Source of the DNA: a virus | Reading direction: 5' to 3' (one strand) | IMG/VR virus record: IMGVR_UViG_3300045988_183931 | Coordinates: 6,965-70,964 of that record | DNA: 64,000 nucleotides | Part shown: in pieces, positions 688-51,479 of the stretch | Numbering within the stretch: position 1 is the stretch's first letter | How the letters are laid out: each line of letters starts with the position of its first letter | Made by a program: the position numbers and the translations under genes | The notes under the pieces: generated by a model | Seen by the model: only the letters and a program-made list of their open reading frames with translations | Told to the model about the DNA's origin: nothing | The model's database searches: none

Positions 688-774
688 ATTCTTTATTTCC
701 TTTCTTGTTTTTAAGAATTTAAGAGGAATGTTTTGTCATTTCGACAAAACGCTCCACACAGCGGAGGGAAGAAC

Positions 775-991
775 TATAATTACGAATGGTAAAACCCTGT
801 TATTTCCGGGTGGTGTATACCCAGCACAGGTATTCAGTTCCCCAAAGCGCTGGTGCCACCTCTCACGTGACTACCAGCCAACAGAGTATTCCTGCTTCCA
901 CGACGACCATGCATCTCCACAGGCGTTAATTCCGGCTATACCGTCCGTACTCGTTTTTATTTCCTTGGCAATGTGTGCAATCATTGCACAC
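775..991 (-). ncRNA. omega-RNA-like structured RNA, copy A: 5' hairpin, scaffold, terminal imperfect hairpin, putative 12-nt guide
   Basis: Starts 16 nt after the TnpB-like stop. Contains a perfect hairpin GUGUGCAAUGAUUGCACAC (991..973) and a stem-loop GUCAC-GUGAGAG-GUGGC. The U-G wobble in that stem is only possible on the minus-strand RNA. A terminal hairpin lies at 821..788, followed by UUCGUAAUUAUA (786..775). Related copies occur at 30600..31136. Confidence 0.5.
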
Positions 992-1006
992 TTTCCTCGC
1001 TCGGCT

Positions 1007-2065
1007 TTAGGCAGGCTTCTGCTCGGAAGCCATGCGCTGACCTTCGGACAGCACGACCTGTGCCAGTGCCTCATCATGCTTGGCTTCCGGTGCTACGGTG
1101 GCGGTATCTACGTCCACCAGAGTGCGTCCAGCCCAGTCCGCCTTATACTTTATCATACCGGTAAGTTCAGACCAGCCGGCATCGAGGATGCTTTTAGCCT
1201 GCTCATTGCCCTCAACTAAGGGCTTAACGGCCACCTTCTCAACGGCAATAAGCTGGTTTGCGTTGACAAGTTCACGGCTGATTTTATGCCGGTAGTCATT
1301 GCGCTGATTGGCAATATGCTCATGGACGCCGGCTACCTTGCGCCGCTGCTTCTCGTAGTTGACAGAGCCCTTCTTCTTGCGGGATAGACGCCGCTGCTCA
1401 CGTGCCAACCGCTTTGCAGACTTGCTCAGATGCTTCGGGTTCTCATAGTGAACGCCGTTGCTGTCAATAGCCAACTCCTTCAGGCCGAGACTGATTCCCA
1501 CCTCGCCGTCCACAATAGGCAGCGTGTCTCGCTCTACTTTACAGCAGACAGATGCCCAGTATTTTCCGGTAGCAGACCGAGAAATAGTGACCTCGCGGGG
1601 AGACCCTTCGATGGGGCGCCCCGTCCCTCGCCTGAGCTTGTTGATTTTCTGATACTGTCCTCCAAACGGAACCTGAATGTAATCGTCCGTCACATAGATA
1701 GTACCAGCGGTCGTAAAACTCTGTGTCGGATGGGACGCGCCCTTAAATTTGGGATAACCGGGCTTCTCCCCCGCTTTAATGCGGCGGAAGAACGCCTTTC
1801 GCGCCTCAAACAAATCAATGATGGCATATCTCTCTGCCGTACAGCCGCAGTCCGCAAGCCAAGGCCAGCGCTCCCGCATCTCCGTGAGAACCTTCATACA
1901 GTCGAAGGTCGTCATCTTCTCCTGTCGGCGCTCATAGATTTTGGAGGTTTGTTCAAGGAAATGGTTCCACACAAACCGGCAGCATTTGAAAGTCTTCTCG
2001 ATGATTTCGACCTGCTCATCAGTCGGGTAAATGCGATACTTAAACGCTTGAAATGTAGTTGGCAT
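1007..2065 (-). CDS. TnpB-like (IS200/IS605 OrfB family) protein, RuvC-inactivated and C-terminally truncated (TldR-like)
   Basis: 352 aa from ATG 2065, with RBS GAAAGGACGG. The N-terminus MPTTFQAFKYRIYPT and the motifs RRLSRKKKGS, ANQRNDYRHK and SILDAGWSEL..YKADWAGR are typical of TnpB. The RuvC-I site reads GISLG (Ser where Asp is expected). RuvC-II Glu is kept (IAVEKV). The ORF ends about 30 aa after GRTLVDVD with no CxxC zinc ribbon and no RuvC-III. The 42-aa extension in the ORF track (2066..2191) lacks an RBS. Confidence 0.8.
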   Translation of the reverse strand: MPTTFQAFKYRIYPTDEQVEIIEKTFKCCRFVWNHFLEQTSKIYERRQEKMTTFDCMKVLTEMRERWPWLADCGCTAERYAIIDLFEARKAFFRRIKAGEKPGYPKFKGASHPTQSFTTAGTIYVTDDYIQVPFGGQYQKINKLRRGTGRPIEGSPREVTISRSATGKYWASVCCKVERDTLPIVDGEVGISLGLKELAIDSNGVHYENPKHLSKSAKRLAREQRRLSRKKKGSVNYEKQRRKVAGVHEHIANQRNDYRHKISRELVNANQLIAVEKVAVKPLVEGNEQAKSILDAGWSELTGMIKYKADWAGRTLVDVDTATVAPEAKHDEALAQVVLSEGQRMASEQKPA

Positions 2066-2451: not shown

Positions 2452-2528
2452 TGGAGCGGACGACGGGACTCGAACCCGCAATGACCAGCTTGGAAGGCTG
2501 GCGTCTCACCAAATTAGACGACATCCGC
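2452..2528 (-). tRNA. tRNA-Gly (anticodon UCC), CCA encoded
   Basis: Hand-folded cloverleaf. Acceptor GCGGAUG/CGUCCGC, anticodon arm CCAGC-CUUCCAA-GCUGG, T-loop GGUUCGAGUCC. Confidence 0.85.
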
Positions 2529-2564
2529 GCATATAAAAAACACCACAAAAGCACATGGTTTTAT

Positions 2565-2640
2565 TGGAGCTGATGGAGGGCCTTGAACCCCCGACCTGCG
2601 GTTTACAAATCCGCCGCTCTGCCAACTGAGCTACATCAGC
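2565..2640 (-). tRNA. tRNA-Thr (anticodon UGU), CCA encoded
   Basis: Starts GCUGAUGUAGCUCAGUUGGCAGAGC. Anticodon loop UUUGUAA, T-loop GGUUCAAGGCC, acceptor GCUGAUG/CAUCAGC. Confidence 0.8.
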
Positions 2641-2647
2641 ATAAGTC

Positions 2648-2711
2648 GTGAAGCCCCCGCACAACGAGGCTGAAAGCACTTTTCAAAAGACCTGTTACAC
2701 GGGGGCTTCAC
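2648..2711 (-). other. Long perfect hairpin between the two tRNA-Thr genes
   Basis: 12-bp perfect stem GUGAAGCCCCCG/CGGGGGCUUCAC enclosing about 40 nt. No U-tract follows. Confidence 0.5.
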
Positions 2712-2733
2712 TTGAAGGAGAATGAGTATGGAA

Positions 2734-2809
2734 TGGAGCTGACGGTGGGGGTCGAACCCACGACCTGCGCGTTACGAGTGCGCCTCTCTGCCTACTGAGC
2801 TACACCAGC
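2734..2809 (-). tRNA. tRNA-Thr (anticodon CGU), CCA encoded
   Basis: Starts GCUGGUGUAGCUCAGUAGGCAGAGA. Anticodon loop CUCGUAA, T-loop GGUUCGACCCC, acceptor GCUGGUG/CACCGUCAGC-type pairing. Confidence 0.8.
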
Positions 2810-2820
2810 ATTTTGGTGGT

Positions 2821-2874
2821 GCTGGCAGCCTCCGCTTATCGCAGGTTAATCACGTCTGCACGGAGGCCGCCAGC
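2821..2874 (-). other. Long hairpin between tRNA-Thr(CGU) and the tRNA-like element
   Basis: 14-bp stem GCUGGCGGCCUCCG/CGGAGGCUGCCAGC. Its single G-U pair exists only on the minus-strand RNA; on the plus strand it would be an A-C mismatch. Confidence 0.5.
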
Positions 2875-2916
2875 GCCGAAGAGAGTTGATGTCGGCGGGG
2901 TGGGTAGAACGCCGGC

Positions 2917-2995
2917 TGGCAATAGCGGCTGGAGTTGAACCAACATATCGTTACCTGTGAGAGAGGTACGGCATTACCAGTTATGCTACGCTATC
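2917..2995 (-). tRNA. Atypical tRNA-like gene (possible anticodon CUC, Glu), CCA encoded
   Basis: Acceptor GAUAGCG/CGCUAUU (G-U at pair 1-72), D-arm GCAU..AUGC, anticodon arm UACCU-CUCUCAC-AGGUA, T-arm GUUGG-UUCAACU-CCAGC. It has an extra nucleotide at position 26 and a 7-nt variable loop, so it needs tRNAscan-SE confirmation. Confidence 0.35.
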
Positions 2996-3305: not shown

Positions 3306-3334
3306 ATACTAACACGAACATATAAAAATGTCAA
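3306..3334 (-). promoter_or_regulatory. Sigma-A-type promoter facing the tRNA operon
   Basis: Minus strand reads TTGACA (3334..3329), 17 nt, TAGTAT (3311..3306), with TG upstream of the -10. About 300 nt of untranslated leader precede the first tRNA-like element. Confidence 0.55.
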
Positions 3335-7901: not shown

Positions 7902-8033
7902 TTGACATTATAAATAATTGTGGTAGTATAATAGTATAATTACGAAGATATTTTTATAAGGAGACTTATCTCCGCTTCCAGTCACACCAAGTATTCAAGA
8001 CAGTTATCCCAAGACAGGGATAGCTGTCTTTTT
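7902..8033 (+). promoter_or_regulatory. Repeated promoter-leader-terminator module, copy 1
   Basis: TTGACA at 7902-7907, then TGgTAGTATAATAGTATAAT. A 46-nt core is shared with copies 2-4. Small hairpin GGAGA-CUUA-UCUCC. 12-bp terminator stem at 7999-8028 plus a U-run. The 12-mer TATAATTACGAA lies at 7935-7946. Confidence 0.8.
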
Positions 8034-8078
8034 ATATATTTTTTTACATTACAACACAATAAGAAAGGAGAAAACATA

Positions 8079-8855: not shown

Positions 8856-9071
8856 GTGAAAGTAAAAAAGAAAATTCGTTACGCCGGCGAATGCTGCATT
8901 TGCCACGAACCCATTGAGGTTGGCGAAGAATATGTCGAGGCACCCTACGAAAACAAACAGTGTCATATCGACTGCATGGAGACAGAGCCGCTTAAAGCGG
9001 TTCTGTCTTTTTTCGGCATTCCGTCGTGTGTAACCAATTCTGAAGGAAAGGAGACAAGAATCTATGGGTAG
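8856..9071 (+). CDS. Hypothetical small Cys-containing protein (CxC...HxxC)
   Basis: 71-aa ORF with a GTG start after AAAGGAG. Overlaps the downstream MazF-like gene by 8 nt. Confidence 0.5.
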   Translation: MKVKKKIRYAGECCICHEPIEVGEEYVEAPYENKQCHIDCMETEPLKAVLSFFGIPSCVTNSEGKETRIYG

Positions 9072-9642
9072 AAATGGAAACATCCGCAGGGGCGATGTAT
9101 TTTGGGTCAATGCGAAAGAAATCGAAATCTTTTCCCCTTGGGCCCCGGAAGGAAGTCAGTTCCGCGATAAAGACGGACATCCTTCCAATAGCTCTGTTAT
9201 CAGAGGGCATCGTCCCGCAATCGTTGTATCTTCGGATGACCTGAACCGCTACAGCAGTGTAGTGGAGGTCGTATTTACGACATCATCTCCAAAGATGCAG
9301 CAGCCCTCCCATGTACTCATCACGAGCACGAGCCGCCCCAGCACAGCACTGTGCGAGCAGCCGATGGCAGTTTCTGTCAATGAGCTGGGAGCCTATATCT
9401 GCCACCTGACTGAAGCGGAGCTGGTAGACATCGACGCCGCGCTGTACTACAGCATGGGGCTAAGTGCTCGTGTGAACGACAATGATGATAATACATGGCG
9501 TGCGCGGTATGAAACCATGCACAGGGCATATTCCGAGATGCTTGTCCATGTTATGCGAATCATGGACAGCAACAACAAACGGGCCACACCGTACCCCGCA
9601 GCCACCGTTGGAAGAAGAAAGGAGCAAGCCGAAAATGAGTAA
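9064..9642 (+). CDS. PemK/MazF-like toxin-fold protein with an insertion and a C-terminal extension
   Basis: 192 aa. IRRGDVFWVN .. RPAIVVSSD .. VEVVFTTS .. PSHVLI .. ALCEQPMAVSVNEL matches the PemK/MazF strand order. There is an extra loop of about 25 aa after beta-1 and an extra tail of about 60 aa. Confidence 0.6.
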   Translation: MGRNGNIRRGDVFWVNAKEIEIFSPWAPEGSQFRDKDGHPSNSSVIRGHRPAIVVSSDDLNRYSSVVEVVFTTSSPKMQQPSHVLITSTSRPSTALCEQPMAVSVNELGAYICHLTEAELVDIDAALYYSMGLSARVNDNDDNTWRARYETMHRAYSEMLVHVMRIMDSNNKRATPYPAATVGRRKEQAENE

Positions 9643-10944: not shown

Positions 10945-11077
10945 TTGACATTATAAGGAAATGTGGTAGTATAGTAGTATAATTACGAAGATATTTTTAT
11001 AAGGAGCTTTGTCTCCGTTTTCAGTCACATCATCACATTCAAGACAGTTGTTCTCTTTTGAGAACGACTGTCTTTTT
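10945..11077 (+). promoter_or_regulatory. Repeated promoter-leader-terminator module, copy 2
   Basis: TTGACA at 10945-10950. Same 46-nt core as the other copies. The 12-mer lies at 10978-10989. 13-bp terminator stem at 11043-11072 plus UUUUU. Confidence 0.8.
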
Positions 11078-11140
11078 ATATATTCACTACATTTTTGTTC
11101 CCATAAGACCTTAACACAGGCTGGGAGAAAGGAGAAAAAT

Positions 11141-12256: not shown

Positions 12257-12808
12257 GTGAGGAAGGACTACATTAGATTTCCCGCAAGGATGAAACAGCT
12301 CGTCAGCTTCACGGGCATGACTATTGAAAACAAGGGTAACTGTTATCCTACCGACATCGACGGACTCATTGAGTATCACGACAAGGGGTATGTTTTCTTT
12401 GAGGTAAAGCATCGTAATGCCGCAATGCCTTATGGTCAGAGACTCGCGCTCCAGCGCATGGTGGAGGATGCTTCCAGAATTGGAAAGACATCTATCGCCA
12501 TCGTGTGTGAACATACGGTAGACAATCCCCTCATTCCCGTCACAGTTGCAACGTGCCGGGTCAGGGAAATCTACTATTCTAAGGAGCATCGTTGGCGGGC
12601 GCCAAAATACCCCACAATGACCGTGAGACAAGCGGTAGATGGGTTTCTCTACACGCCAAGCGTTCAGCAATACAGAACGCCCTCTGGCGGCATTAGCACC
12701 CTCGTGGTGGCTCAGGTAGCGAGAGGAGGGGCTATCCCCTTCCCTCCCGCCTACCCAGCCGCGCAGAGCTTCGGTGCCGTGCCTGATACACTGAGGCAGA
12801 GCAGTTGA
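12257..12808 (+). CDS. Putative PD-(D/E)XK-fold nuclease-like protein
   Basis: 183 aa from GTG 12257 after AAAGGAGG. The spacing DIDGLIEYHDKGYVFFEVKHRN gives a D...E-V-K arrangement like PD-(D/E)XK nucleases. Confidence 0.4.
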   Translation: MRKDYIRFPARMKQLVSFTGMTIENKGNCYPTDIDGLIEYHDKGYVFFEVKHRNAAMPYGQRLALQRMVEDASRIGKTSIAIVCEHTVDNPLIPVTVATCRVREIYYSKEHRWRAPKYPTMTVRQAVDGFLYTPSVQQYRTPSGGISTLVVAQVARGGAIPFPPAYPAAQSFGAVPDTLRQSS

Positions 12809-12838
12809 AATCCGCAAAAAAAAAGAAAGGAGAGTAAC

Positions 12839-13291
12839 ATGGGAAGAAACAAAGTTTTGTCCCGCGATGAGGTCGTAAAAAGCCTGAAGAAGCAGCTCAC
12901 CGAGTATGACATTACCGACATCCCAACGGACGCAATTCGACATTTGCAGATGGCGAGAATTATCTGCGAGTGCAATTATGTGTTCCTCGATGATGTTATC
13001 GAGACTCTGGTAAATTGGCTGAAAATGGATACCGGTGAAATTCCCAAGGGTGCGGTATCGCTCCTGCAGGATGCACTGGATGCCTGTCGCGGAACTTCAC
13101 CACATAAGCGGCGCAAAGTAAGCAAAGAAGGTTCCGGTACGCCGTCGGAAGTGTTCGACGAGTTCCTGTTCCTTGGAGATGTTACCGGATTGCTCGGCGA
13201 ATGGTTTGACATGGACACTCAGGATATTCCTGAGGCGGCGTTGGCTGCGCTGCATAAGGTCTACGACCTTTGTTGTCAGGAATATGAGTGA
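12839..13291 (+). CDS. Hypothetical protein with an internal duplication
   Basis: 150 aa with RBS GAAAGGAGAG. Two similar segments: LVNWLKMDTGEIPKGAVSLLQDALDAC and LLGEWFDMDTQDIPEAALAALHKVYDLC. Confidence 0.6.
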   Translation: MGRNKVLSRDEVVKSLKKQLTEYDITDIPTDAIRHLQMARIICECNYVFLDDVIETLVNWLKMDTGEIPKGAVSLLQDALDACRGTSPHKRRKVSKEGSGTPSEVFDEFLFLGDVTGLLGEWFDMDTQDIPEAALAALHKVYDLCCQEYE

Positions 13292-14930: not shown

Positions 14931-15063
14931 TTGACATTATAAAGAATTGTGGTAGTATAGTAGTATAATTACGAAGATATTTTTATAAGGAGATTTATCT
15001 CCGTTTTCAGTCACATCATCATATTCAAGACAGTTGTTCTCATTTGGGAACGACTGTCTTTTT
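14931..15063 (+). promoter_or_regulatory. Repeated promoter-leader-terminator module, copy 3
   Basis: TTGACA at 14931-14936. Same core as the other copies. The 12-mer lies at 14964-14975. Terminator stem at 15029-15058 plus a U-run. Confidence 0.8.
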
Positions 15064-15101
15064 ATATATTCAGAACAAGTAAAAACGAAAGGAGAAAACG
15101 C

Positions 15102-20864: not shown

Positions 20865-21000
20865 TTGACAAAATAGCGAAACGTGGTAGTATAATAGTAT
20901 AATTACGAAGATATTTTTATAAGGAGTTTTATCTCCGTTTTTCAAGTCACATCATAAATTCAGACAATCACTTCCCTTTTCGGGCAGTGATTGTCTTTTT
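20865..21000 (+). promoter_or_regulatory. Repeated promoter-leader-terminator module, copy 4
   Basis: TTGACA at 20865-20870. Same core as the other copies. The 12-mer lies at 20898-20909. Terminator stem GACAAUCACU.CCC/GGG.AGUGAUUGUC at 20963-20995 plus UUUUU. Confidence 0.8.
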
Positions 21001-21068
21001 CTATATATACATTTTATTTTGGTTTCCCGTAAGTCCTTATCACAGGCTGGGAGAAAGGAGAAAACATC

Positions 21069-30165: not shown

Positions 30166-30576
30166 TCAAGTTTTACAGTAGCGGATAAAGTCCTGTGCCG
30201 AGAACGGCAGATTATCGTATCCGCAGTCCTTCAAATAACGGGAGACAACAGCAGAACTCATACTGATACGTCCATCTCCCGATGCCTTCATATGCTGTAA
30301 GCAGATGTCAGCATAACCATCTACCACATCAAGGTGTTCCAGACACCACTTCTCAACGCGGCGTTTGCGGGCCGCCAGAGACCGCTGTTCGGGATGCGGC
30401 ATCTTCTTGTAGGTGTATGCCTTTGCCGCCTTCTCGCGGCTCGTGTAGCCGAAACCTTGGGCATCATCCAATACCGCACCAGTCTTGGGCTGTATGACAA
30501 TGTAACGCGGTTCATATTCTGAGGAGAGCTCCCGCGAATATACGACTTTGAAGTAATCAGCCATACAAACAATCAT
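30166..30576 (-). CDS. Hypothetical protein
   Basis: 136 aa from ATG 30576 (MIVCMADYFKV). RBS GGTGGAAGG lies close upstream. ATG 30564 is an alternative start. Confidence 0.5.
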   Translation of the reverse strand: MIVCMADYFKVVYSRELSSEYEPRYIVIQPKTGAVLDDAQGFGYTSREKAAKAYTYKKMPHPEQRSLAARKRRVEKWCLEHLDVVDGYADICLQHMKASGDGRISMSSAVVSRYLKDCGYDNLPFSAQDFIRYCKT

Positions 30577-30599
30577 CGCCCTTCCACCGATTTTGATAC

Positions 30600-30765
30600 T
30601 CAAGCTGTTCCCCAAGGTGCTCTCACCTCGGTGCTGTACCGCCTCTCACGCGGTGTTCAGCCATGGGAAGTTCCTGCTTCTACGACGGAGTTCGTCTCCA
30701 CAGGCGTAAATTCCGGCTGTACCATCCGTACGTCTTTAAGTGTGCAATCATTGCACACTTTCCTT
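30600..30765 (-). ncRNA. omega-RNA-like element, copy C (divergent, no adjacent tnpB, no terminal hairpin)
   Basis: Same 5' hairpin GUGUGCAAUGAUUGCACAC (30758..30740) and GUACGGAUGGUACAGCCGGAAUUUACGCCUGUGGAGA. Stem-loop ACCGC-GUGAGAG-GCGGU is compensatory relative to copies A and B. UUGGGGAAC is conserved. It ends about 25 nt before the start of the 30576 gene. Confidence 0.45.
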
Positions 30766-30803: not shown

Positions 30804-30997
30804 GGTATACAACCCTGTTATTTCGGGGTGGTGTATACCCCTAACCGTGACATATCCTTTACGATAACGGGTATATGCCAGTGTGCAATGAGATGGTATA
30901 GTACCCTGTTTTTTTCTGGGTGGTGTATACCGCCACTCAAATTCAACGTGCGGCATCTTGTGGTATAGTACCCTGCTATTTCTGGGTGGTGTATACC
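30804..30997 (-). repeat. Three tandem imperfect-hairpin repeats (36-37 nt) separated by 55 and 30 nt
   Basis: Repeats at 30804-30839, 30895-30931 and 30962-30997. Consensus on the minus strand: GGUAUACACCACCC-N10-GGGU(NN)UAUACC. The same hairpin type ends copy A (788-821). Confidence 0.7.
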
Positions 30998-31136
30998 CAG
31001 CACAGGTATTCAGTCCCCCAATGCGTTGGTCGTCACCTCTCACGTGACTACCAGCCAACAGAGTATTCCTGCTTCCACGACGACCATGCATCTCCACAGG
31101 CGTTAATTCCGGTTATACCATCCGTACTTGTTTTTT
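30998..31136 (-). ncRNA. omega-RNA-like element, copy B (scaffold abutting the tRNA-Ser 3' end)
   Basis: About 90% identical to copy A over roughly 170 nt including hairpin repeat 3. It starts with an A7 run immediately after the tRNA CCA. It lacks the 5' hairpin. Confidence 0.45.
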
Positions 31137-31224
31137 TGGCGGAGAGAGTGGGAGTCGAACCCACGGATGCTTTCGCATCGCCGGTTTTCAAGACCGGTGC
31201 CTTCAACCACTCGGCCACCTCTCC
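31137..31224 (-). tRNA. tRNA-Ser (anticodon UGA), long variable arm, CCA encoded
   Basis: Starts GGAGAGGUGGCCGAGUGGUUGAAGGCA. Anticodon arm CCGGU-CUUGAAA-ACCGG, variable arm GAUGC-GAAA-GCAUC, T-loop GGUUCGACUCC. Confidence 0.85.
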
Positions 31225-39646: not shown

Positions 39647-41962
39647 TCACCGACGTCCAGAGCGCCGACTCCGCGAAGAACCACGCGACGTACTGCGACT
39701 ACCGGAACGACCACCACCAGAGCGCGAGGAGGCTCCTGCGGGTTTGGTGCTGTTGAACTGAAGCGTAAAGTTCGGGCCCCAATCACTGCGCTGACTGTCA
39801 TCCATCACAAGGTCTGCCGCAAATGTACCGCCGTCCTTCTTGGTCAGCTTCGTCTTATGGACAGGCTTTCCAGCGAGAAAGTTTTTGACATCCTTCTCTG
39901 TGAATGTGATGTGCTGGAACAGAGTCGGTTTTGGCTTTTTCCAGATGGTAAACTTACATCCATTCTTCCAGTTGGAACAACCAAAGCCCATTTTCCCCTC
40001 TATGATGTTCCCACCACAGCGAGGACAGACTCCTATCGGCGTGAATCCCTTCCTTGTCGGGACAATGTTGGGGTCCACTTTAGGATGCGGTTGCTGCAGG
40101 AAATCTTTGAGCATAGCCAGAACGTTTTGTTCCAGCTTCTCCGGCGTCGCCTTCCCCTCATGTATCTCCTCTTGAATGACCCACCACAAGGCGGTGAGGT
40201 CCGGTCCACGAAGGGAATCGGGGAGAATGCGATACAACTCGCGTCCAAGCGGAGTGGAAATAAGGGACTTCCCCTTTTCCTGCAAGAACCCTCTTGAAAT
40301 GAGACCGGAGATTATCTGGTCCCGTGTTGCGCTGGTGCCGATAGCCCCGTTATTCTCCTCCACGTCGGCATCTTTCTTCAGCAGAGTGCTCTTGATGAAT
40401 GGGTCCGTAACGTACTTGGCAATACGGCTCATATCCTTCGCCAGCGTGTACTGTGTGTAACGAGGAGGGGGATTTGTTTCCTTCTCTAAGACCTGAGCGT
40501 CGGAAACAAAGGCATCGTAGCTGCCGGCGGGTATCATACTCAACGCTGTGGGCGTATCTACACCTTCGCGCATCATCACGAGATAACCGGGTTTCAGCAC
40601 ACCAGTGCTGGACGCCTCTAAAGTGGCGCCGTCCGGCAGCGGGACGACCAGCCTTGTTGTTTCCTTCTCAGCGGGCGGAAAGAACTGGATAAGATAATAC
40701 TTACAAATGGCAAGATATACGTTTCGTTCCCGCTCTGTCATCTTGTTGAGGTCGAGACTCACATTTTGAGGAATGATGCCAAAATGGGCTTCAATTTTAG
40801 AATCGTCGAAGCACCGCCCCTTCGTCTTGAAGTCCATACCAAGAATAGGGTTGAAATTTCCTTTTCCTACCGTGTTTATGTTTGCGATAACAGTCCGGGA
40901 GGTGGCGGGAGCTTCCGCAAAGTAGTTTTCGGGGAGATATCGCACCTGAGTACGGTTATATGTAATGGCGTTGTAGTTATCGCGTAAAGACTGCGTGATT
41001 TCCATGGTGTCGTCCAGCTTGTAGCCGAAACTCTTCAAACAGTAGCCCTGCAATTCCAGCATATCAAACGGCAAAGGCGGTTGTTCTTTGGAAATCTTTT
41101 TTGTAACGGCAGCCCCAGAGAACTGTTTTCCGGAAATCATCGCAGACTTGCTCTCCGCGTAAGGTCTTTCCAAGATAAGCCCATCAGTCAGATGAGGGTC
41201 ATCTTTCTTCGGCCTGTACTTCGTCTCAACGACCTTACCCTCAACAGAAGTCTTCGCTGAGACCTCATAGTATTTAGTTTTTACGTGGTTTTCGATAAGC
41301 ATATCACGCTCGACCACAAGCCCAAGGGTAGGAGACTGCACACGTCCAACTGTCAGCGAAGCATTGTTTACCAGCGAATAATACCGGCTCATATTCACAC
41401 CAACCATAAGGTCGGCAACGCTCCGTGCGTAAGCAGACCACCCCATGTTCTCAAAGAGACGGTTATCCTTGAGGTTGTTGAGCGCACGCTGCAGCGCAGG
41501 GATAGAGGTGTCGCCCGTCGCCAAACGGTAAACGGGGCCACGATAACCGTGCCAGCGAAGCAGCTCGTCAATAAGAAGCTGCCCCTCTTCATCAGGGTCT
41601 CCTGCGTGGATTACACAGGAACACTGTTTCAGCAGCTCGCCGATGCGGGCAACGCGCTCATTGGGGTTCACTCCCCTGCCATTGTATTCTTTGATTTTGG
41701 TCTGCCAGTTAGGGAAGTAAATGGGTAGTGCAGACAAATCCCACTTACCAAGAGCGGCATCGTAATCCTCAGGTTCTTTCAAAGACAAAAGGTGTCCCTG
41801 TGAACACACGATGACGTAATCGCCCTTTACGGTCGCTCCACGGTCAGAACGTGCCGTGCCGGGGATAGCTTGAGCAATCAAATCGCCAAGCTGTTTTTTC
41901 TCAGCAAGTATTAGTTTAATGTGGAAACACGACCTTTCACAGCAGGTGTTAAAAGCTCCCAA
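39647..41962 (-). CDS. topB: Type IA DNA topoisomerase (topoisomerase III-like) with C-terminal zinc ribbons and an Arg/Ser/Gly tail
   Basis: About 770 aa. Toprim signatures ILAEK and GDPDEEGQ. CPRCGG...GCSNWKNGC zinc ribbons. The start is uncertain: the ORF track uses TTG 41962, and the conserved N-terminus begins at IKLILAEK. Confidence 0.8.
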   Translation of the reverse strand: MGAFNTCCERSCFHIKLILAEKKQLGDLIAQAIPGTARSDRGATVKGDYVIVCSQGHLLSLKEPEDYDAALGKWDLSALPIYFPNWQTKIKEYNGRGVNPNERVARIGELLKQCSCVIHAGDPDEEGQLLIDELLRWHGYRGPVYRLATGDTSIPALQRALNNLKDNRLFENMGWSAYARSVADLMVGVNMSRYYSLVNNASLTVGRVQSPTLGLVVERDMLIENHVKTKYYEVSAKTSVEGKVVETKYRPKKDDPHLTDGLILERPYAESKSAMISGKQFSGAAVTKKISKEQPPLPFDMLELQGYCLKSFGYKLDDTMEITQSLRDNYNAITYNRTQVRYLPENYFAEAPATSRTVIANINTVGKGNFNPILGMDFKTKGRCFDDSKIEAHFGIIPQNVSLDLNKMTERERNVYLAICKYYLIQFFPPAEKETTRLVVPLPDGATLEASSTGVLKPGYLVMMREGVDTPTALSMIPAGSYDAFVSDAQVLEKETNPPPRYTQYTLAKDMSRIAKYVTDPFIKSTLLKKDADVEENNGAIGTSATRDQIISGLISRGFLQEKGKSLISTPLGRELYRILPDSLRGPDLTALWWVIQEEIHEGKATPEKLEQNVLAMLKDFLQQPHPKVDPNIVPTRKGFTPIGVCPRCGGNIIEGKMGFGCSNWKNGCKFTIWKKPKPTLFQHITFTEKDVKNFLAGKPVHKTKLTKKDGGTFAADLVMDDSQRSDWGPNFTLQFNSTKPAGASSRSGGGRSGSRSTSRGSSRSRRSGRR

Positions 41963-45275: not shown

Positions 45276-48200
45276 TTACTCGGCGCCATACTCCTTCTTG
45301 CGGCGGAACATGAACACCGCAGTGCCGCAGCAAGCAATGGCACTGAACGTACCCAGCATGGCCCACAGGCCGATGCCCTCATCGCCAGTCTGGACACTGT
45401 CGCGGAAATACACCGTCTGAGCACCGTCCATCAGGTCGTTGTGGGTAGCAATGACATTACCCGCCTCAGCACGACCCTCATACAGAGTCTCGAACACCAC
45501 GAGCGCATGGTCCTTCAGCTTGGATGCGTCGAACTTGAACGTAACATTCACAGCACCGTTGGAGGACTTGGGCGTAAAGGTCGTAGTAGCAGTTACCAGA
45601 TTACCCTTATTGTCCTTGAGGGCAACACCGGAATCCTTATCCATCAGCGTACCAACCAGTACGTAGGTCTTGCCCACAGTCAGGCCGGTATAGTTGACGG
45701 TGTCCACGATTTTTACGTTCTTACCAGCAACGGAGTTCTTCTTCTCCTTGCCATCGAAGGTAGCGGTGGTGGAAATGTTCGGACCGGAATAGGTCGGGAT
45801 GCGCTTGATGGTCACAGTCTGGTCAACATCGTTGATGTCGGCGTGAGTTGCGACCGTAGTGCCATTGCGGGTCAGGGTCTCGAACACGACCAGCGTCTTA
45901 CCGCCCAGAATGGATGCATCGAACACGAAACTCACATCCACAGTACCGTCAGAGGATTTGGCCTCGAACTCGGTAGTGGCGGTGATTTCCTTGTTGTTGC
46001 GGCCCAGAACAGGCTCACCTGTCGCCTTGTCCATCAGCTTACCGATTACGGTGTACTTATTGCCGGCAATCAGGCCCTTATAGGACACGGTATCGACCAG
46101 CTCGACCTTGCTGTAGGCCCAGAATTCCTTCTTGCCATCAGCAGCGTTCTTAGCGGTGGTCTTGATTTCAGGGCTGTTGACAGTCACAGTCTGGTCAACA
46201 TCGTTGATGTCGGCATGAACTGCGATTTCAATGTCCTTGTACTGCAGGGACTCGAATACAACGATAGACTGGCCACGCAGCAGAGATGCATCGAGCACGA
46301 AGAACACGTCAACGGTGCCATTGGACGCCTCAGCGGTGAAGGTAACGGAGGAGGTAATTTCCTTTCCGTCCTTATCCTTCAGGGGCTCGTTGGTGGCCTT
46401 GTTCATCAGCTTACCGGAGACAGTGTACTTCTCTCCAGCAATCAGGCCCTTATAGGACACGGTATCCTTGATTTCAGCGCGGGCTTCGGGGTCGAGGGTC
46501 TTGCCATTGGTGGCGTTGTTCACGGCCTTTGTACCGATTTCGGGAACGCCGATGGTGACGGTCTGCCCCTCATCGTTGATATCCTCGTGACTCACAAACA
46601 CGGGTTTATTGGAGTCGCCGGGAACAATCTCGTTGCCCAGATACACACGCTCGAATACCACCAGAGACTTGCCGGCCAGCTTGGAAGCGTCAAAGACGAA
46701 CTTCACATCCACCGTACCAGTGGCAGCTTCGGGAGTGAACACCTTGTAAGAGGTAACGGGGTCGCCGTTGGCATCGGTAACGGGCTTGCCGGTGGCCTTA
46801 TCCATCAGCGTACCGATAGCGATGAACTCCTTACCCACGGGCATATTCTCGTAGGAGATGGTATCCACCAGAATCACATCAGCCAGAGGCATGAACTCCT
46901 TGCCGCCAACAGCGTTCTTGGCCGTGGTGCCAATCTTGGGGTTCAGGATTACAACGGTCTGGTCAACATCGTTGATGTCAGCATGGGTAGCAACGACACG
47001 GTTTCCGCGCTTCAGGTCCTCGAAAACAACGATGGACTCGCTACCCAGCAGAGACGCATCAAAGGTGAACTCCAGCTCCACAAAGCCAGTGAAGTCGGCC
47101 TCAGCCTTGAAGGTCTTAGAGGCGGTAATGCGATTACCCTCGGCGTCCAGCAGAGGCTCGCCGGTGGACTTAACCACCAGATATCCCTCGACCGTATAGG
47201 TCTTGTTGGGGATAACATCGGTGCATTCCACCTTATCGACGATAGTGACAGTGGTGGCCGGAACGATTTCCTTGTTTCCTTCCTTGTCGGTTGCAGTAGT
47301 CTTGACCTTGGGAGTCACCGCCTCGTCCTCGGCGATGATATTCACAGTCACCAGACCGGTCTCGGCATCCAGAGAAATGGTATCGGGCGTAACGCTGAAG
47401 GTAATCGGGGTATCCATCAGCTCATAACCCTTCGGGGGTACGATTTCGACCAGATGATAGTTCTCGCCGTAAGGCAGAACCAGCGGGGTCACAAAATAAC
47501 CCTCATCATTTGTCTCGAATGTATCAATATAAGTTACCGTGGGGTAAGTGACCTTCTGGGACACCTTGTTCCCGTCAGGGTCGTAAATCTGGAACTTTGC
47601 ACCACCCCAAGGAATGACCTCGCCGTCAAGCTCATCGACCTTCACAACGCGCAGATACGCGGTAATAGGTCCGTTGTTGACAGCCAAGTCGTGATGGTCG
47701 TGGTCAACCTCGCCAACCAAAACGGTGAACTCAGGCGCGAGCCCCGCACCCTTATCGCCGGCCTTGGTCTGATGCACCACATAGGTGCCGTAGGGCAACT
47801 CGATGGACTTGCCGCTGTAACCCAAGTCGTTGGTCGTCAGGATGCCGCGCTCGTCATCCTTAGCGTTCTCGTAAGAGCCGGCGGACTGCAGCCAATACTT
47901 GAACTCTGCACCGCCCTCGAACTTAGCGGGACCGGAGGTGCCGTCGGAGATGAACTTGGTAATGGCGAATGTGCCGCGATTGATGACCTCGACAGAGGTA
48001 ATCTGGGGAGCAACGTTGTGTTCGATACGGTAATTCTCCGGCTCGGAGCCAACGCGATACACGCCCTCATCAATCTGATAGCCAGTGGGGGCCTTGATTT
48101 CACGGATGGTGTAATCATAGCCGCAGATGTACTCGTCAGTGGTGAACTTGCCATCGCTGCCGATAACGTACTCCTTCACCAGCTCGTCACCCTTATAGAG

Positions 48201-50942
48201 ACCGTACACAGCACCCTCAAAGACACCATCGCCGCGAGGGATGTTGCCAGTCTCGGCGTCCGTCTTCTCCACAGTGACCTTCCACTTCTTCAGTACGTTG
48301 GTCACAGCGGTGTCGGTAACTTTCTGGAACTCCACAACGAGACCTGTCTGCACGGCAGGAATAACATACTTCACCGCCGTATCGACTTCCTCCAGCGTGT
48401 AGTTGTTGCCAATCAGGACATCCTTGAAGATGGCAATACCGTCAGCGTTGGTGGTAGCAGTCAGGTCAACAGCATCGCCGGAGATGGCAGTGCCATGCAG
48501 CCGGAAGGTGATGCCCTCGACCATGCCGTCCTCAGAGGTCTTGGTAACGCGCAGGTCGCCGCGCTTGAGCTTGTTGTAGACATTCACGGGGGTGGTGTTA
48601 TCCAGAGTAACCTTCACACCGTTTGTCACAGCGGGAACGATATACTTGGCAGCCGTGTTCACTTCCTCAACGCTGTAGTTGTTGCCAATCAGAACGTTGT
48701 TGAAGGTGGCAACTCCGGCGTCATTGGTCACGGCGGTCATATCCACCGTCTCGCCGTTGATAGCAGTACCGGACAGGCGGAACGTGATACCAGCGACCTT
48801 GCCGTCCTCGGAGGTCTTCTTAACCTCAACGGCGCCGCGAGCCAGCTTATTGTGGAAGTTCAAGCTGGTGGTGTTGTTGAGCGTGACGGTCACATTGCTC
48901 TGGACAGCGGGAACAACGTACCGCTCGGCGGTGTTGATTTCCTGCACGGTATAGTTATTACCGATAAGGATTTCTCTGAACATGACGACGCCGTTCTCGT
49001 CGGTAGAAGCAGTTTCATTGACTGCTGCTCCGGAGATAGACGTACCGGTCAGCCGGAAGGTCATGCCTGCCACGAAGCCGTCCTCGGATGTCTTCGTGAT
49101 TTTCAGATTGCCGCGAGCCAGCTTGTTCTCGAACTGAGCAGGGGTGCTGGTGTTGTACTCAACCACCACGCCAGCCTGCACCGCAGGAACAACATACTTC
49201 GCGGCGGTGTTGATTTCCTCCAGCTTATAGTTGTTGCCCACAGGAACATTATTGAAGGTAGCCACGCCGTTGGCATCCGTCACAGCCGTCATGTTGACAG
49301 CCGTACCTGCTGCGGAAGTGCCGGACAGCCGGAAGGTGTGTCCAGCAATCTGACCATCCTCAGAGGTCTTAGTAACCTTCACAACGCCCTTCTTCAGTAC
49401 GTTGCTGAAGTTCACTGTCTTGAAATCGCCGATAGCGATGGTCACAGTTTGAGGCTGCGTCGGGATGTAGTTGTTAGGTGTATTCTCCGTTACTGTGTAA
49501 GTACCGGGCTGCAAATCGGTAATGGCAATCTTACCGTTCGCACCAGTGGTCACAGTCTTGCTGTAACCGTTAGGACCCGTGACCGTGAAGCTCACGCCGC
49601 CAACCTTGCCATCCTCTGAAGTCTTGGCAATGTTCAAATCGCCGGTAGTCTTTGTGACCTTGGCGCGGACGTAGGCAGTAACGGGGTCAGGTGTACCGTT
49701 AAGAGCAACGCAATCCTGCTTACTGCCGCCGGCAACAAGCAGATAGGCATTGACGCTATCAGGGTCAATCACATTGCCCTCAGAAGCATACGACGCAATG
49801 CCGTTCAGCATACTCTTCGCGGCTTCCGGAGTGGCTGTAATCGTAAGATTGTTTCCACTCTGGAAGGTGCTCACACCGGGCAGGCTGAACTCGAAGTCGT
49901 CAAAATTTCTCAGGACTCTGTAGGTGTCGGTTCTTGTCAGAGACCAAGAAGTACCATCCCAAGCCAGTTCGAAGTCGTTTCTCGTATCACGCGGACTCCT
50001 TACGGCAAAACTCGGTATAACGGTCTGCTGGTTAATCTTCTCCCAGATATAATCGTGTGCCGCCTTGATGGGCACAGCAACTTCAGGGTCATACTGATGA
50101 CCGGGACCCACAAACAGGTCACTCAGGTCACTGTAGCCGCCGACGATTTCCCAGATAACTTCCTGTGTGGCGCACCAAGCATAGGTGCCGTTGCCAGCAT
50201 ACCAGAGCAACGTTGAGTCATCTGCCCCACCGTAGCCATAGGCAAGCGCGAGGCGAACCCGCTGGTCTCCCCAATACGCGCTGGCATCAACGGAAGTTCC
50301 CGCGCCGGGGGAATCCTTGTGGGGTTCAATACAGTACGCCGGCTGGCCGTTGAAATATTTTACAACGGCACTGGAATAGGGTGCGAACTCAGCCATCCAC
50401 TTGCTGTTATAGCCCATGTCGTCACCGGTCGTAATGGTGCCCGATGCGCGAGCGGGAGCCCTCATTGCACTGATAGCTTTGGGGGCGTTCTGTGTAGACC
50501 CGTACAGGAAGGAAACGTTCACGGGAGTATTCTCTCCAGCGTAGGGGTCCTGAAGTCCCTCCTCCGTCACGGAAGATTTGACAGACTCATCCTTACCAGC
50601 CTCAGATTTAGCTTCACCCGGAGCAGCCTGCCCGTTTTCAGAGGAGCTCTCTTTGGAGGTGTCCTTCTTATCGGCACCGCCCTTAACATCATCCTCAACC
50701 ACGGAAGAATCGGACTTCTTACCGTCATCGGGATTCTTCGTGTCTTCTGTGGCGTTGTAGACCAAATCGCCGTCGCCAGAACCAGTATTTCCAACCTTCA
50801 CAGGGTCAGAAACACTTCCGATAACGACCGAATCGCCGCCGCCATCCGCGTCCGACGCATACACGGATGTCGGGAGCATTCCGACCACCATCACCAGCGT
50901 CAGCAGCATAGCAACAACGCCACGCATTTTCTTGTGTTTCAT
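45276..50942 (-). CDS. Giant cell-wall-anchored adhesin: signal peptide, thioester (TQXA-type) domain, CnaB-like repeats, ester-bond-type Ig-like repeats, SVQTG sorting signal
   Basis: 1888 aa from ATG 50942, with RBS GAAAGGAGA. Thioester-domain signatures are QPAYCIEP and CATQEVIW. KTSEDG repeats occur 5 times and H.DI.D..QTV repeats 5 times. The C-terminus has SVQTGD, a TM helix and an RRKKE tail. Confidence 0.85.
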   Translation of the reverse strand: MKHKKMRGVVAMLLTLVMVVGMLPTSVYASDADGGGDSVVIGSVSDPVKVGNTGSGDGDLVYNATEDTKNPDDGKKSDSSVVEDDVKGGADKKDTSKESSSENGQAAPGEAKSEAGKDESVKSSVTEEGLQDPYAGENTPVNVSFLYGSTQNAPKAISAMRAPARASGTITTGDDMGYNSKWMAEFAPYSSAVVKYFNGQPAYCIEPHKDSPGAGTSVDASAYWGDQRVRLALAYGYGGADDSTLLWYAGNGTYAWCATQEVIWEIVGGYSDLSDLFVGPGHQYDPEVAVPIKAAHDYIWEKINQQTVIPSFAVRSPRDTRNDFELAWDGTSWSLTRTDTYRVLRNFDDFEFSLPGVSTFQSGNNLTITATPEAAKSMLNGIASYASEGNVIDPDSVNAYLLVAGGSKQDCVALNGTPDPVTAYVRAKVTKTTGDLNIAKTSEDGKVGGVSFTVTGPNGYSKTVTTGANGKIAITDLQPGTYTVTENTPNNYIPTQPQTVTIAIGDFKTVNFSNVLKKGVVKVTKTSEDGQIAGHTFRLSGTSAAGTAVNMTAVTDANGVATFNNVPVGNNYKLEEINTAAKYVVPAVQAGVVVEYNTSTPAQFENKLARGNLKITKTSEDGFVAGMTFRLTGTSISGAAVNETASTDENGVVMFREILIGNNYTVQEINTAERYVVPAVQSNVTVTLNNTTSLNFHNKLARGAVEVKKTSEDGKVAGITFRLSGTAINGETVDMTAVTNDAGVATFNNVLIGNNYSVEEVNTAAKYIVPAVTNGVKVTLDNTTPVNVYNKLKRGDLRVTKTSEDGMVEGITFRLHGTAISGDAVDLTATTNADGIAIFKDVLIGNNYTLEEVDTAVKYVIPAVQTGLVVEFQKVTDTAVTNVLKKWKVTVEKTDAETGNIPRGDGVFEGAVYGLYKGDELVKEYVIGSDGKFTTDEYICGYDYTIREIKAPTGYQIDEGVYRVGSEPENYRIEHNVAPQITSVEVINRGTFAITKFISDGTSGPAKFEGGAEFKYWLQSAGSYENAKDDERGILTTNDLGYSGKSIELPYGTYVVHQTKAGDKGAGLAPEFTVLVGEVDHDHHDLAVNNGPITAYLRVVKVDELDGEVIPWGGAKFQIYDPDGNKVSQKVTYPTVTYIDTFETNDEGYFVTPLVLPYGENYHLVEIVPPKGYELMDTPITFSVTPDTISLDAETGLVTVNIIAEDEAVTPKVKTTATDKEGNKEIVPATTVTIVDKVECTDVIPNKTYTVEGYLVVKSTGEPLLDAEGNRITASKTFKAEADFTGFVELEFTFDASLLGSESIVVFEDLKRGNRVVATHADINDVDQTVVILNPKIGTTAKNAVGGKEFMPLADVILVDTISYENMPVGKEFIAIGTLMDKATGKPVTDANGDPVTSYKVFTPEAATGTVDVKFVFDASKLAGKSLVVFERVYLGNEIVPGDSNKPVFVSHEDINDEGQTVTIGVPEIGTKAVNNATNGKTLDPEARAEIKDTVSYKGLIAGEKYTVSGKLMNKATNEPLKDKDGKEITSSVTFTAEASNGTVDVFFVLDASLLRGQSIVVFESLQYKDIEIAVHADINDVDQTVTVNSPEIKTTAKNAADGKKEFWAYSKVELVDTVSYKGLIAGNKYTVIGKLMDKATGEPVLGRNNKEITATTEFEAKSSDGTVDVSFVFDASILGGKTLVVFETLTRNGTTVATHADINDVDQTVTIKRIPTYSGPNISTTATFDGKEKKNSVAGKNVKIVDTVNYTGLTVGKTYVLVGTLMDKDSGVALKDNKGNLVTATTTFTPKSSNGAVNVTFKFDASKLKDHALVVFETLYEGRAEAGNVIATHNDLMDGAQTVYFRDSVQTGDEGIGLWAMLGTFSAIACCGTAVFMFRRKKEYGAE
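45400..47320 (-). repeat. 5 tandem domain repeats of about 128 aa (about 384 nt) within adhesin 1
   Basis: Each ends with the recurrent H(A/E/N)D(I/L)xDxxQTV. The periodicity is also visible as periodic shadow ORFs on the plus strand. Confidence 0.7.
48290..49660 (-). repeat. 5 tandem CnaB-like repeats of about 95 aa within adhesin 1
   Basis: Recurrent (V/I)(T/K)KTSEDG..(A/V)G..F.L.GT...G. Confidence 0.7.
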
Positions 50943-51479
50943 GGTATTTTTGTCTCCTTTCAATGAATGTAATTTAGAGAAAACCAGCCTTCTTATATTT
51001 ATCGGTTTCTTGTTATTGCCAATTTTGAAACTGATATTACAAGGAGGCGGATTGCCCTCCATGTTTTTATGGTAGCATAATCGCGCATATTGTCAACACA
51101 TCCAAGAACACAATTTGCAAAACGAATAAAACACATTGTTCAAGGCAAAAAAAGGAACAACAACAGAAGAACAGCGACCTAAGTCGCTGTTCTTCTGTTT
51201 TAGCAAATAGCTTACGCTGCGAAATAAACATAGAATTCGTGATGACCAGCCGAGGCATTCCATCTCGCAACACAGTTTACTGTAGCAGCTCACCCCTCAA
51301 CCTCCGGAGTCCATCGTCCGTTTTCAAAATGAGAGCGTAGGAAGCCGTTCATATTTCAAACACAAAAAAGCCGAGACACCACCTCGTTTCTGAAATGGCA
51401 TCTCGGCTCTTTGAAGTTTTGAGTTTTTTAGAAAATGACATCTACTCCCTTAGTCGAGGAAAACAACATAAGTCAGGAG

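Follow-up and report, generated by a model that had tools for sequence, protein, structure and literature searches.

A 64,000-nucleotide stretch of the IMG/VR record IMGVR_UViG_3300045988_183931 (positions 6,965 to 70,964; hereafter, the window) carries near its left end a tldR-like gene encoding a TnpB homologue, followed by an omega-RNA-like scaffold, a terminal hairpin, and a 12-nt guide that recurs in four promoter modules of the same stretch. With moderate confidence, we lean towards an element-borne silencing system resembling CRISPR interference (CRISPRi), in which a nuclease-dead TnpB draws its guides from spacer arrays, while pairing with the element's own promoters is peculiar to one lineage. 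A sequence-only reading of the window had instead proposed a TnpB exapted as an RNA-guided repressor, a TldR, acting as the master regulator of a mobile-element gene block. The TldR-like dead TnpB of that proposal stands, whereas its fixed guide turns out to be the lineage-specific tail of a variable array.

The protein belongs with TnpB in sequence, as the sequence-only reading had held, and in predicted fold. Its open reading frame (ORF, 2065..1007, minus strand) matches the Pfam families OrfB_IS605 (6.9e-25) and HTH_OrfB_IS605 (3.9e-18), and ISDra2 TnpB (8h1j, 8exa) aligns with residues 6-322 of its 352 amino acids at an E value of 4e-49. The AlphaFold2 model (predicted local distance difference test 87.8, predicted TM-score 0.76) adopts the TnpB fold, its closest Foldseek structure being the ISDra2 TnpB ternary complex (8exa_A; query TM-score, TMq, 0.83, E 3e-27), with the folds of Cas12f, Cas12m, and Cas12k far more distant; for Cas12m, the match is much weaker at TMq 0.61-0.68 and E 1e-8 to 7e-7. 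LaTranC matches only residues 241-320 (E 7.5e-12), and only the first 24 of the 60 positions of the Cas12f1-like TNB domain are matched, below the cutoff.

In the RuvC-I motif, GVDVG of ISDra2 TnpB is replaced by GISLG, with Ser (S192) in place of Asp, a change anticipated from the sequence, confirmed by alignment with ISDra2 TnpB and with active relatives, and present in 3/3 clade representatives (352 or 348 amino acids; 99, 87 and 79% identity). The RuvC-II Glu is retained as E276 within IAVEKV, also as anticipated. Alignments against active relatives (51-53% identity; A2, n = 11 sequences; A5, n = 47) place an in-frame gap of ~28 amino acids where both CxxC pairs of the zinc finger would lie. 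Beyond this gap, the C-terminal tail KHDEALAQVVLSEGQRM is still alignable with DRDENAAKNILTEGLRM of the active relatives, and D331 falls at the position of the almost invariant RuvC-III Asp, while the NAA motif is lost. A simple C-terminal truncation, as first supposed, is therefore rejected, because the zinc finger was excised in frame and the tail still aligns; of the three catalytic features said to be lost, the RuvC-I Asp and the zinc ribbon are indeed gone, but the RuvC-III Asp is not. An active TnpB would combine an intact D-E-D triad with a zinc finger on a multi-copy mobile element, whereas here we find S192, the zinc-finger deletion, and a single copy, with no second TnpB-like ORF in the 64-kb window. 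From the Asp-to-Ser change together with the zinc-finger deletion, we infer that nuclease function has been lost. The ratio of nonsynonymous to synonymous substitution rates (dN/dS) between lineages is 0.07-0.08 at a dS of ~1.1, which argues for a maintained protein under strong purifying selection rather than a decaying pseudogene. The domesticated TnpB homologue is almost certainly nuclease-inactive.

Homologues of the gene were recovered on 25 IMG/VR contigs (31-192 kb) and two ENA contigs, 27 loci in all, with the same synteny throughout (tRNA cluster, RecG-like helicase, promoter modules). From one IMG/VR locus to the next, the gene keeps its downstream neighbor and the promoter modules upstream of it, and the window holds one copy of the gene. 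In these relatives, the stop codon is followed by arrays in which the 36-nt repeat GGTATACACCACCCGGAAATAACAGGGTTGTATACC alternates with ~30-nt spacers in 1-8 units. The 27 related loci and 61 human-gut metagenome contigs from a repeat scan yielded 96 distinct spacers, of which 60 have a length of exactly 30 nt. Most of the arrays examined begin with an omega-RNA-like scaffold, the first array always adjoins the gene, and further scaffold-led arrays lie within 5 kb downstream of it in each element; those of the window's lineage fall just beyond coordinate 1 (12515-12862 and ~14000-14240 in L025). Elements with 99% identical proteins differ in their scaffold-proximal spacers but have distal spacers in common; the latter are only 16-21 nt long and lie between degenerate repeats. 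Spacers thus turn over at the scaffold-proximal end. The arrays thus show the uniform repeats and spacers, the foreign matches, and the polarized turnover of CRISPR arrays, although at 788..821 of the window only one degenerate repeat is left. Active relatives at 51-53% identity (L060, L062) and a second dead clade (P0026, 45% identity) carry single scaffolds and no array, so that the array is specific to this clade.

The scaffold core behind the gene shares 94% identity with the second copy (31135..30998), and its GCCTGTGGAG/GAAGCRGRAA core is common to the omega-RNAs of active TnpB relatives. The scaffold collection comprises 45 distinct copies; a consensus fold over 19 scaffold variants has 49 pairs, three with compensatory and many with one-sided changes, and it is this alignment-based consensus, not the single-sequence fold, that supports the structure. 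Rfam at gathering thresholds returned only tRNAs. The non-coding stretch, the imperfect hairpin at 821..788, and the 12-mer at 786..775 described by the sequence-only reading are all present, and the 12-mer occupies the guide position of an omega-RNA, directly after the omega-RNA-like scaffold and hairpin; the single base A787 separates the hairpin from TTCGTAATTATA. The terminal repeat GGGTTTTACC lacks two stem bases relative to the family repeat.

The recurrence of the 12-mer in the window is exact and exhaustive. Its complement TATAATTACGAA lies on the plus strand at 775, 7935, 10978, 14964, and 20898 and, with up to one mismatch allowed, nowhere else in the window, as had been claimed for the four promoter sites. 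The chance expectation for TATAATTACGAA is 0.12, with five matches reached in 0/100 shuffles, and composition-matched shuffled 12-mers were present in the window in 0.5% of trials. Elsewhere in the family, roughly 30 array tails and 14 short spacers gave anchored matches of only 8-10 nt in the window. The targets lie in four near-identical modules, in each of which an upstream terminator is followed by TTGACA, 16 nt, TG-n-TAGTAT, and AGTATAATTACGAAGATATTTTTATAAGGAG, and these by a small hairpin and then a strong terminator hairpin. The -10 elements end at 7929, 10972, 14958, and 20892, so that the 12-mer spans ~-1..+11; the four targets lie directly behind the best sigma-70-like promoters of the region, and their placement in the start-site region of a repeated promoter module was correctly recognized at the outset.

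The flagged guide is the last, truncated spacer of an array that collapsed in the window's lineage. The minimal form, consisting of only the last degenerate repeat and the tail, occurs in the window, L011, L013-15, and L025, while in L002, L004, L005, L006, and L023 the same tail is preceded by one or two ordinary units. Positions 786..770 match the promoter variants of sister elements (…ATAGC, TTCGTAATTATA-A/C-TTCT…) at 16/17 positions, from which we consider it most likely that one of the family's promoter modules was the source from which the spacer was captured, to be truncated later at the decaying array end. It had been argued that identity stops abruptly on both sides of the 12-mer; this holds for the 12 nt shared with the element's own promoters, but not for the sister-element variants (TTCGTAATTATA-N-TTCT). 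The accompanying exclusion of a duplicated flank is consequently half right, since the same 16/17 match suggests that the spacer originated in a promoter module. A known regulatory design pairs a degenerate distal repeat with a spacer that is only in part complementary to a promoter (10.1101/2023.03.03.530964), and the degenerate repeat at 821..788 with its 12 nt of seed-proximal promoter complementarity has this composition. TldRs use 9-16-nt guides with a ~6-nt seed (10.1101/2023.11.30.569447), a range within which the 12-nt pairing falls.

Other spacers point to foreign DNA and to kin elements. The orphan-array spacer GTTATCGTAAAGGATATGTCACGGTTAGG (30868-30840) matches 29/29 in serine-recombinase genes (…VIVKDMSRLGRN…) of four unrelated IMG/VR contigs and of the gut "Bacteriophage sp." record MT839899; the other spacer of this array is ACAAGATGCCGCACGTTGAATTTGAGTGGC (30961-30931). 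On the contigs of the kin elements L025 and L009, a spacer of L017 matches 28/30 at a site just downstream of the -10-like TGGTAGCATAAT, and its tested 18-nt seed occurs on L017's own contig only as the array copy. INPHARED phages gave one true protospacer in a first batch, none in a second, and only the array copy in MT835962.1 in a third; PLSDB plasmids gave no protospacer, and when other spacers were used in four IMG/VR scans, nothing but the arrays was hit.

Homology, residue changes, arrays, spacer matches, promoter positions, and purifying selection were computed, and from them we infer RNA processing, binding, repression, and spacer acquisition. In the mechanism we propose, an omega-RNA scaffold of ~140 nt ends in a hairpin that doubles as the 36-nt repeat and, in relatives, heads arrays of 30-nt spacers, whose transcripts would yield scaffold-plus-guide or repeat-plus-guide RNAs to be loaded by the dead protein. 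The complex would bind complementary DNA without cutting it and block transcription in the manner of CRISPRi, its targets being other mobile elements and the start-site-proximal regions of kin elements. The flagged array has collapsed to its degenerate last repeat and a spacer of 12-17 nt, and the surviving guide would direct the protein to ~-1..+11 of the four own modules, probably damping those operons or those of incoming kin; damping of the own modules could serve as a temporal shut-off or as immunity against incoming kin. Such targeting of the own promoters is probable because the guide still pairs there with 12 contiguous seed-proximal bases. Among the lineages compared, this self-promoter guide is a lineage-specific add-on and not the conserved purpose of the system. 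By analogy with type IV-A3 systems, spacers might be acquired in trans through host Cas1-Cas2. More tentatively, and as a possibility that we would not put on a level with the silencing itself, the locus may represent an independently evolved, element-borne adaptive CRISPRi system at the TnpB-to-CRISPR transition, one in which a complete omega-RNA serves both as leader and as first repeat for a 352-residue dead TnpB lacking the zinc finger, and which still acquires spacers, silences the promoters of kin and competitors, targets its own four modules in one lineage, and has no cas1/cas2 in cis.

Several observations weigh against such a silencing system. No cas1, cas2, or cas4 was detected by PADLOC among the 43 ORFs of the window; targets were identified for only 2/96 spacers; and the few protospacers give no consistent target-adjacent motif (TAM), the flanks being CTACT/CTACC/GAACG, TCGCG/TCAAG, and ATAGC/ATATC. 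Repeat-plus-spacer units without a scaffold of their own would still have to load the protein. At the flagged locus, the terminal hairpin at 821..788 is weakened in the window, the single-sequence fold of the RNA is not better than that of shuffled sequences (z -0.42), and, with the standard repeat boundary, the first spacer base A787 mismatches the promoters. In that same fold, the tail ACCAUUCGUA (775-790) pairs 10/11 with the scaffold 5' end UACGGACGGU (940-952), a pairing that could sequester the guide. Finally, the guide is missing in lineages with identical promoters, and guide and promoter changes are independent of each other.

The strongest competing account, which we regard as unlikely but worth serious weight, is that the flagged unit is a relic of an old kin-promoter spacer, inert at the element's own promoters for want of production, of loading, or of a compatible TAM, while the other arrays act. 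The guide matches the kin variants (16/17) better than the own promoters (12 nt), it follows a terminal repeat that has degenerated by two stem nucleotides, its tail is lineage-specific, and distal spacers are truncated to 16-21 nt in other arrays too. The guides of L004 and L023 read TTCGTAATTATG and are already mismatched at position 12, while the two promoters of L023 are unchanged (the L004 locus holds no module). On the other hand, the first 11 nt are identical in 19/19 array copies, a weak argument given that the elements are ~99% identical; the terminators directly after the guide fit a transcribed unit; and TldR binding needs only a ~6-nt seed and a TAM.

Less probable still is a classical TldR with one fixed omega-RNA guide, serving as master regulator of a ~20-kb gene block through an ATATC TAM, which is what the sequence-only reading had put forward. 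A 12/12 match at the start sites of four promoters is unlikely to arise by chance, the dead TnpB is under selection, and short guides work in TldRs. However, the guide stands behind the degenerate last repeat of an array that varies among relatives, and other lineages carry unrelated tails (AGACCTTTTATG..., GTTTGCAAATGAG...) that do not match the promoter, yet have the same promoter core, GTGGTAGTATAG-N-A-N-TATAATTACGAAG, which is conserved in every lineage with or without a matching guide. The expected co-variation of guide and promoter fails as well: module 2 of L011 reads TATGATTACGAA while the L011 guide is unchanged, and the L023 guide changed without its two promoters. The flank difference first noted is real, the four targets being flanked by ATATC and the guide locus by TACCA, but ATATC could not be confirmed as a TAM; the other protospacers are flanked by CTACT/CTACC/GAACG and TCGCG/TCAAG. 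TnpB homology and fold, a RuvC substitution, zinc-finger loss, immobilization, and an adjacent scaffold are thus shared with TldRs, whereas one fixed guide that is conserved alongside its TAM-flanked promoter target is not found.

We judge it very improbable that the arrays work with a different effector, be it an intact Cas12 or TnpB encoded in another part of the element or a CRISPR-Cas system of the host, with the dead TnpB unrelated or a decoy. Adaptation genes are lacking in the window, which covers 64 kb of an element of ~180 kb, and the uniform 30-nt spacers suggest a Cas1-Cas2 ruler. Against this, most arrays start with a scaffold closest to the omega-RNAs of the protein's active homologues, the first array always abuts the gene, no second TnpB-like ORF exists in the window, and selection on the protein is strong. 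It is hardly credible that the 12-mer (775-786) represents the TATAAT-plus-start region in a fifth copy, acting as an antisense promoter or pause site on the plus strand: a sigma-70-like TCCACA-16-TATAAT does lie at 753-780 (+; 10/12), but the module promoter (TTGACA...TGGTAGTAT) and leader are missing at 775-786, identity begins exactly at the repeat junction, and this TATAAT is not a spacing-compatible -10 in the modules. We reject an ordinary tnpB transposon of the IS200/IS605 kind, or a pseudogene, with the guide as mere insertion flank, as it is by construction in TnpB elements, given the single copy, the fixed synteny in 27 loci, the lack of TnpA in the gene lists, the dN/dS of 0.08, the loss of the RuvC-I Asp across the clade, and the foreign-spacer arrays that follow the gene.

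The CRISPRi-like reading that we favor places the system between several known ones. The fliCP- and oppF-associated TldR clades (Wiegand et al., 10.1101/2023.11.30.569447) resemble it in their TnpB size, RuvC substitutions, zinc-finger loss, immobilization on a mobile element, and an adjacent omega-RNA-derived guide RNA with a short guide against a promoter or start-site region. They differ in having one fixed guide conserved with its target and TAM, whereas here several arrays per genome turn over, other mobile elements are among the targets, and no fliCP- or oppF-like partner gene is evident. Type V-M Cas12m (PMC10442227) is likewise a TnpB-derived effector that does not cut double-stranded DNA, uses an array, silences mobile elements, and has no adjacent cas1/cas2, but it has ~600 amino acids, an expanded recognition (REC) region, and a separate CRISPR RNA (crRNA), compared with 352 amino acids and an array fused to a full omega-RNA scaffold here. 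Type IV-A3 systems on conjugative plasmids (10.1101/2023.06.23.546257) are also element-borne and nuclease-free, have no adaptation module of their own, carry spacers against competitors, and are proposed to silence rather than cleave; their class 1 multi-subunit effector with DinG is, however, evolutionarily unrelated to the 352-residue protein, and acquisition in trans via host Cas1-Cas2 is demonstrated there and conjecture here.

TranC, Cas12f, and the type V-U groups (PMC10691335; LaTranC 9jfo, 9jfq) share arrays downstream of a TnpB-like gene and repeats derived from the omega-RNA 3' end, and some V-U groups have non-canonical RuvC sites (PMC10691335), but those described in detail are active nucleases or use a split trans-activating crRNA (tracrRNA) and crRNA. 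Regulatory mini-arrays and cr-like RNAs (scaRNA, tracr-L, type I and V-A standalone repeats; 10.1101/2023.03.03.530964) have the same degenerate distal repeat and partial seed-proximal promoter complementarity and give binding without cleavage; they work with nuclease-competent effectors and mostly on cas or cargo genes of the same locus, whereas in the present case a dead effector would be aimed at four dispersed operon promoters. Among phage-encoded type V systems with a role in conflicts between mobile elements, Cas12r of Thermus Lalka phages (10.64898/2026.04.20.719267) is also borne by a virus or mobile element and has spacers against integrative elements, but it is an active nuclease with a conventional array. 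Among the papers mentioning TldR that were searched, none describes a TldR-like protein accompanied by spacer arrays, this clade not having been compared with the catalogued V-U groups (PMC10691335).

Seen in this context, one living system would unite two themes, in that a full omega-RNA scaffold heads spacer arrays for a dead, TnpB-sized effector, and array size within one clade spans everything between eight units and a lone guide. TldRs are known as transcription factors with a single guide, and the arrays of Cas12 systems are thought to stem from duplication of the omega-RNA 3' segment. The flagged locus suggests that a seemingly fixed regulatory guide can arise from a decaying array end. 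If the arrays are functional, this would be the smallest module for programmable DNA binding with multiplexed guides in nature, would offer a natural test of how arrays form and gain spacers in the absence of local Cas1-Cas2, and would bring a new player into the conflicts among large mobile elements of the human gut.

Table 1. Coordinates of the gene, RNA, array, promoter, and protospacer features in the window.
Feature	Coordinates	Strand	Remarks
tldR-like gene, 352-aa TnpB homologue	1007..2065	-	Pfam, alignment, predicted fold, dN/dS
Palindromic hairpin GTGTGCAATGATTGCACAC	973..991	-	Between stop codon and conserved scaffold; missing from gene-less scaffold copies
Omega-RNA-like scaffold core	822..958	-	GTACGGACGGTA...GCCTGTGGAG...GAAGCAGGAA...GGGGAACTGAATACCTGTGCTG
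Terminal hairpin GGGTTTTACC	788..821	-	Degenerate copy of the 36-nt array repeat GGTATACACCACCCGGAAATAACAGGGTTGTATACC
Truncated terminal spacer (guide) A-TTCGTAATTATA-GTTCT	770..787	-	786..775 matches four modules exactly
Two terminator-like hairpins	730..766	-	766..752 and 750..730; directly 3' of guide
Promoter module 1	7902..8040	+	TTGACA 7902-7907; TG-TAGTAT end 7929; target 7935-7946; terminator 7997-8030
Promoter module 2	10945..11084	+	Target 12-mer 10978-10989; terminator 11041-11074
Promoter module 3	14931..15070	+	Target 12-mer 14964-14975; terminator 15027-15060
Promoter module 4	20865..21001	+	Target 12-mer 20898-20909; terminator hairpin ~20964-20996
Third, diverged scaffold-like sequence	30590..30764	-	76% identity over ~110 nt; no terminal repeat
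Orphan three-repeat array	30804..30997	-	Repeats 30997-30962, 30930-30895, 30839-30804; truncated remnant ~30878-30869
Second, gene-less scaffold	30998..31135	-	Directly after tRNA-Ser 31224..31137
Partial protospacer of L017 spacer	51086..51103	+	18/18 at seed end; just after -10-like TGGTAGCATAAT

The second scaffold and its orphan array abut the 3' end of tRNA-Ser, an arrangement that suggests co-transcription and release by tRNA-processing enzymes. The third scaffold-like sequence (30764..30590), which runs into the start of the ORF at 30615..30166, could be either a unit in decay or an RNA of another kind. Some relatives carry a third array with short spacers, ACAGAATAACTGCGGCAGC and GCATAAAAAAGGCTAT (L025 14096-14240, L019 16101-16245, L007 14391-14535), which lies off the left edge of the window and is unchanged between lineages whose proteins are 13% different. 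These two spacers could be fixed regulatory guides; no targets for them were found in the collected sequences. The reverse complement of an L009/L023 spacer, CTTCGTCAATGA[G/T]GGCATTTCCACAGGCGT, resembles the scaffold core ACGCCTGTGGAGATGC, and some spacers may thus target guide-RNA genes of related systems. In the region 51040-51110 (+), the window departs from the L025 and L009 contigs exactly after nucleotide 18 of the L017 protospacer, a divergence that could reflect escape from targeting. Besides, the unannotated INPHARED record MT835962.1 ("Bacteriophage sp.", human feces) contains at ~1747-1971 an array that shares three spacers with metagenome copies, which indicates that an undescribed relative of the element is already in GenBank.

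In all four promoter modules, a second perfect -10-like TATAAT is present at ~+1..+6, after the real extended -10, and a small hairpin and a strong intrinsic terminator follow ~60-100 nt downstream (z -4.9 in module 3). The modules look like sites of sigma-dependent pausing with antitermination control, or like four copies of a small-RNA gene.

The element itself is a large mobile element of ~175-190 kb from the human gut, whether phage, plasmid, or hybrid, and is so called because Pfam, PHROGs, and PADLOC scans of the window ORFs, most of them of unknown function, found no virion genes. The window genes include a CobS/CobT-like pair, a MazF/PemK toxin, a flotillin, a non-specific endonuclease, and topoisomerase III. 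On the contigs with called genes (L001, L002), the neighbors of the tldR-like gene are the same, and no TnpA or other transposase appears in the gene lists. GTDB, searched with one genome per species, held no close homologue (best 38%). Two giant adhesin-like ORFs at 45279-51062 (-) and 52979-63991 (-) encode 1,928 and 3,671 amino acids with TED, SpaA, and TQ domains, and topoisomerase III lies at 39650-41962 (-). Giant adhesins together with topoisomerase III are typical of Gram-positive conjugative elements; despite these conjugative-type features, IMG/VR bins the element's contigs as viral.

Upstream of the tldR-like gene lies a cluster of four tRNA genes (Glu, Thr, Thr, Gly), preceded by a promoter, TTGACA-17-TG-TAGTAT, of the same type as that of the modules (cluster and promoter at 2452-2995 (-) and 3306-3334 (-)), and a terminator-like hairpin at 2452-2429 stands between the tRNA genes and the tldR-like gene. 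The MazF/PemK-type toxin gene is located at 9064-9642 (+), downstream of promoter module 1.

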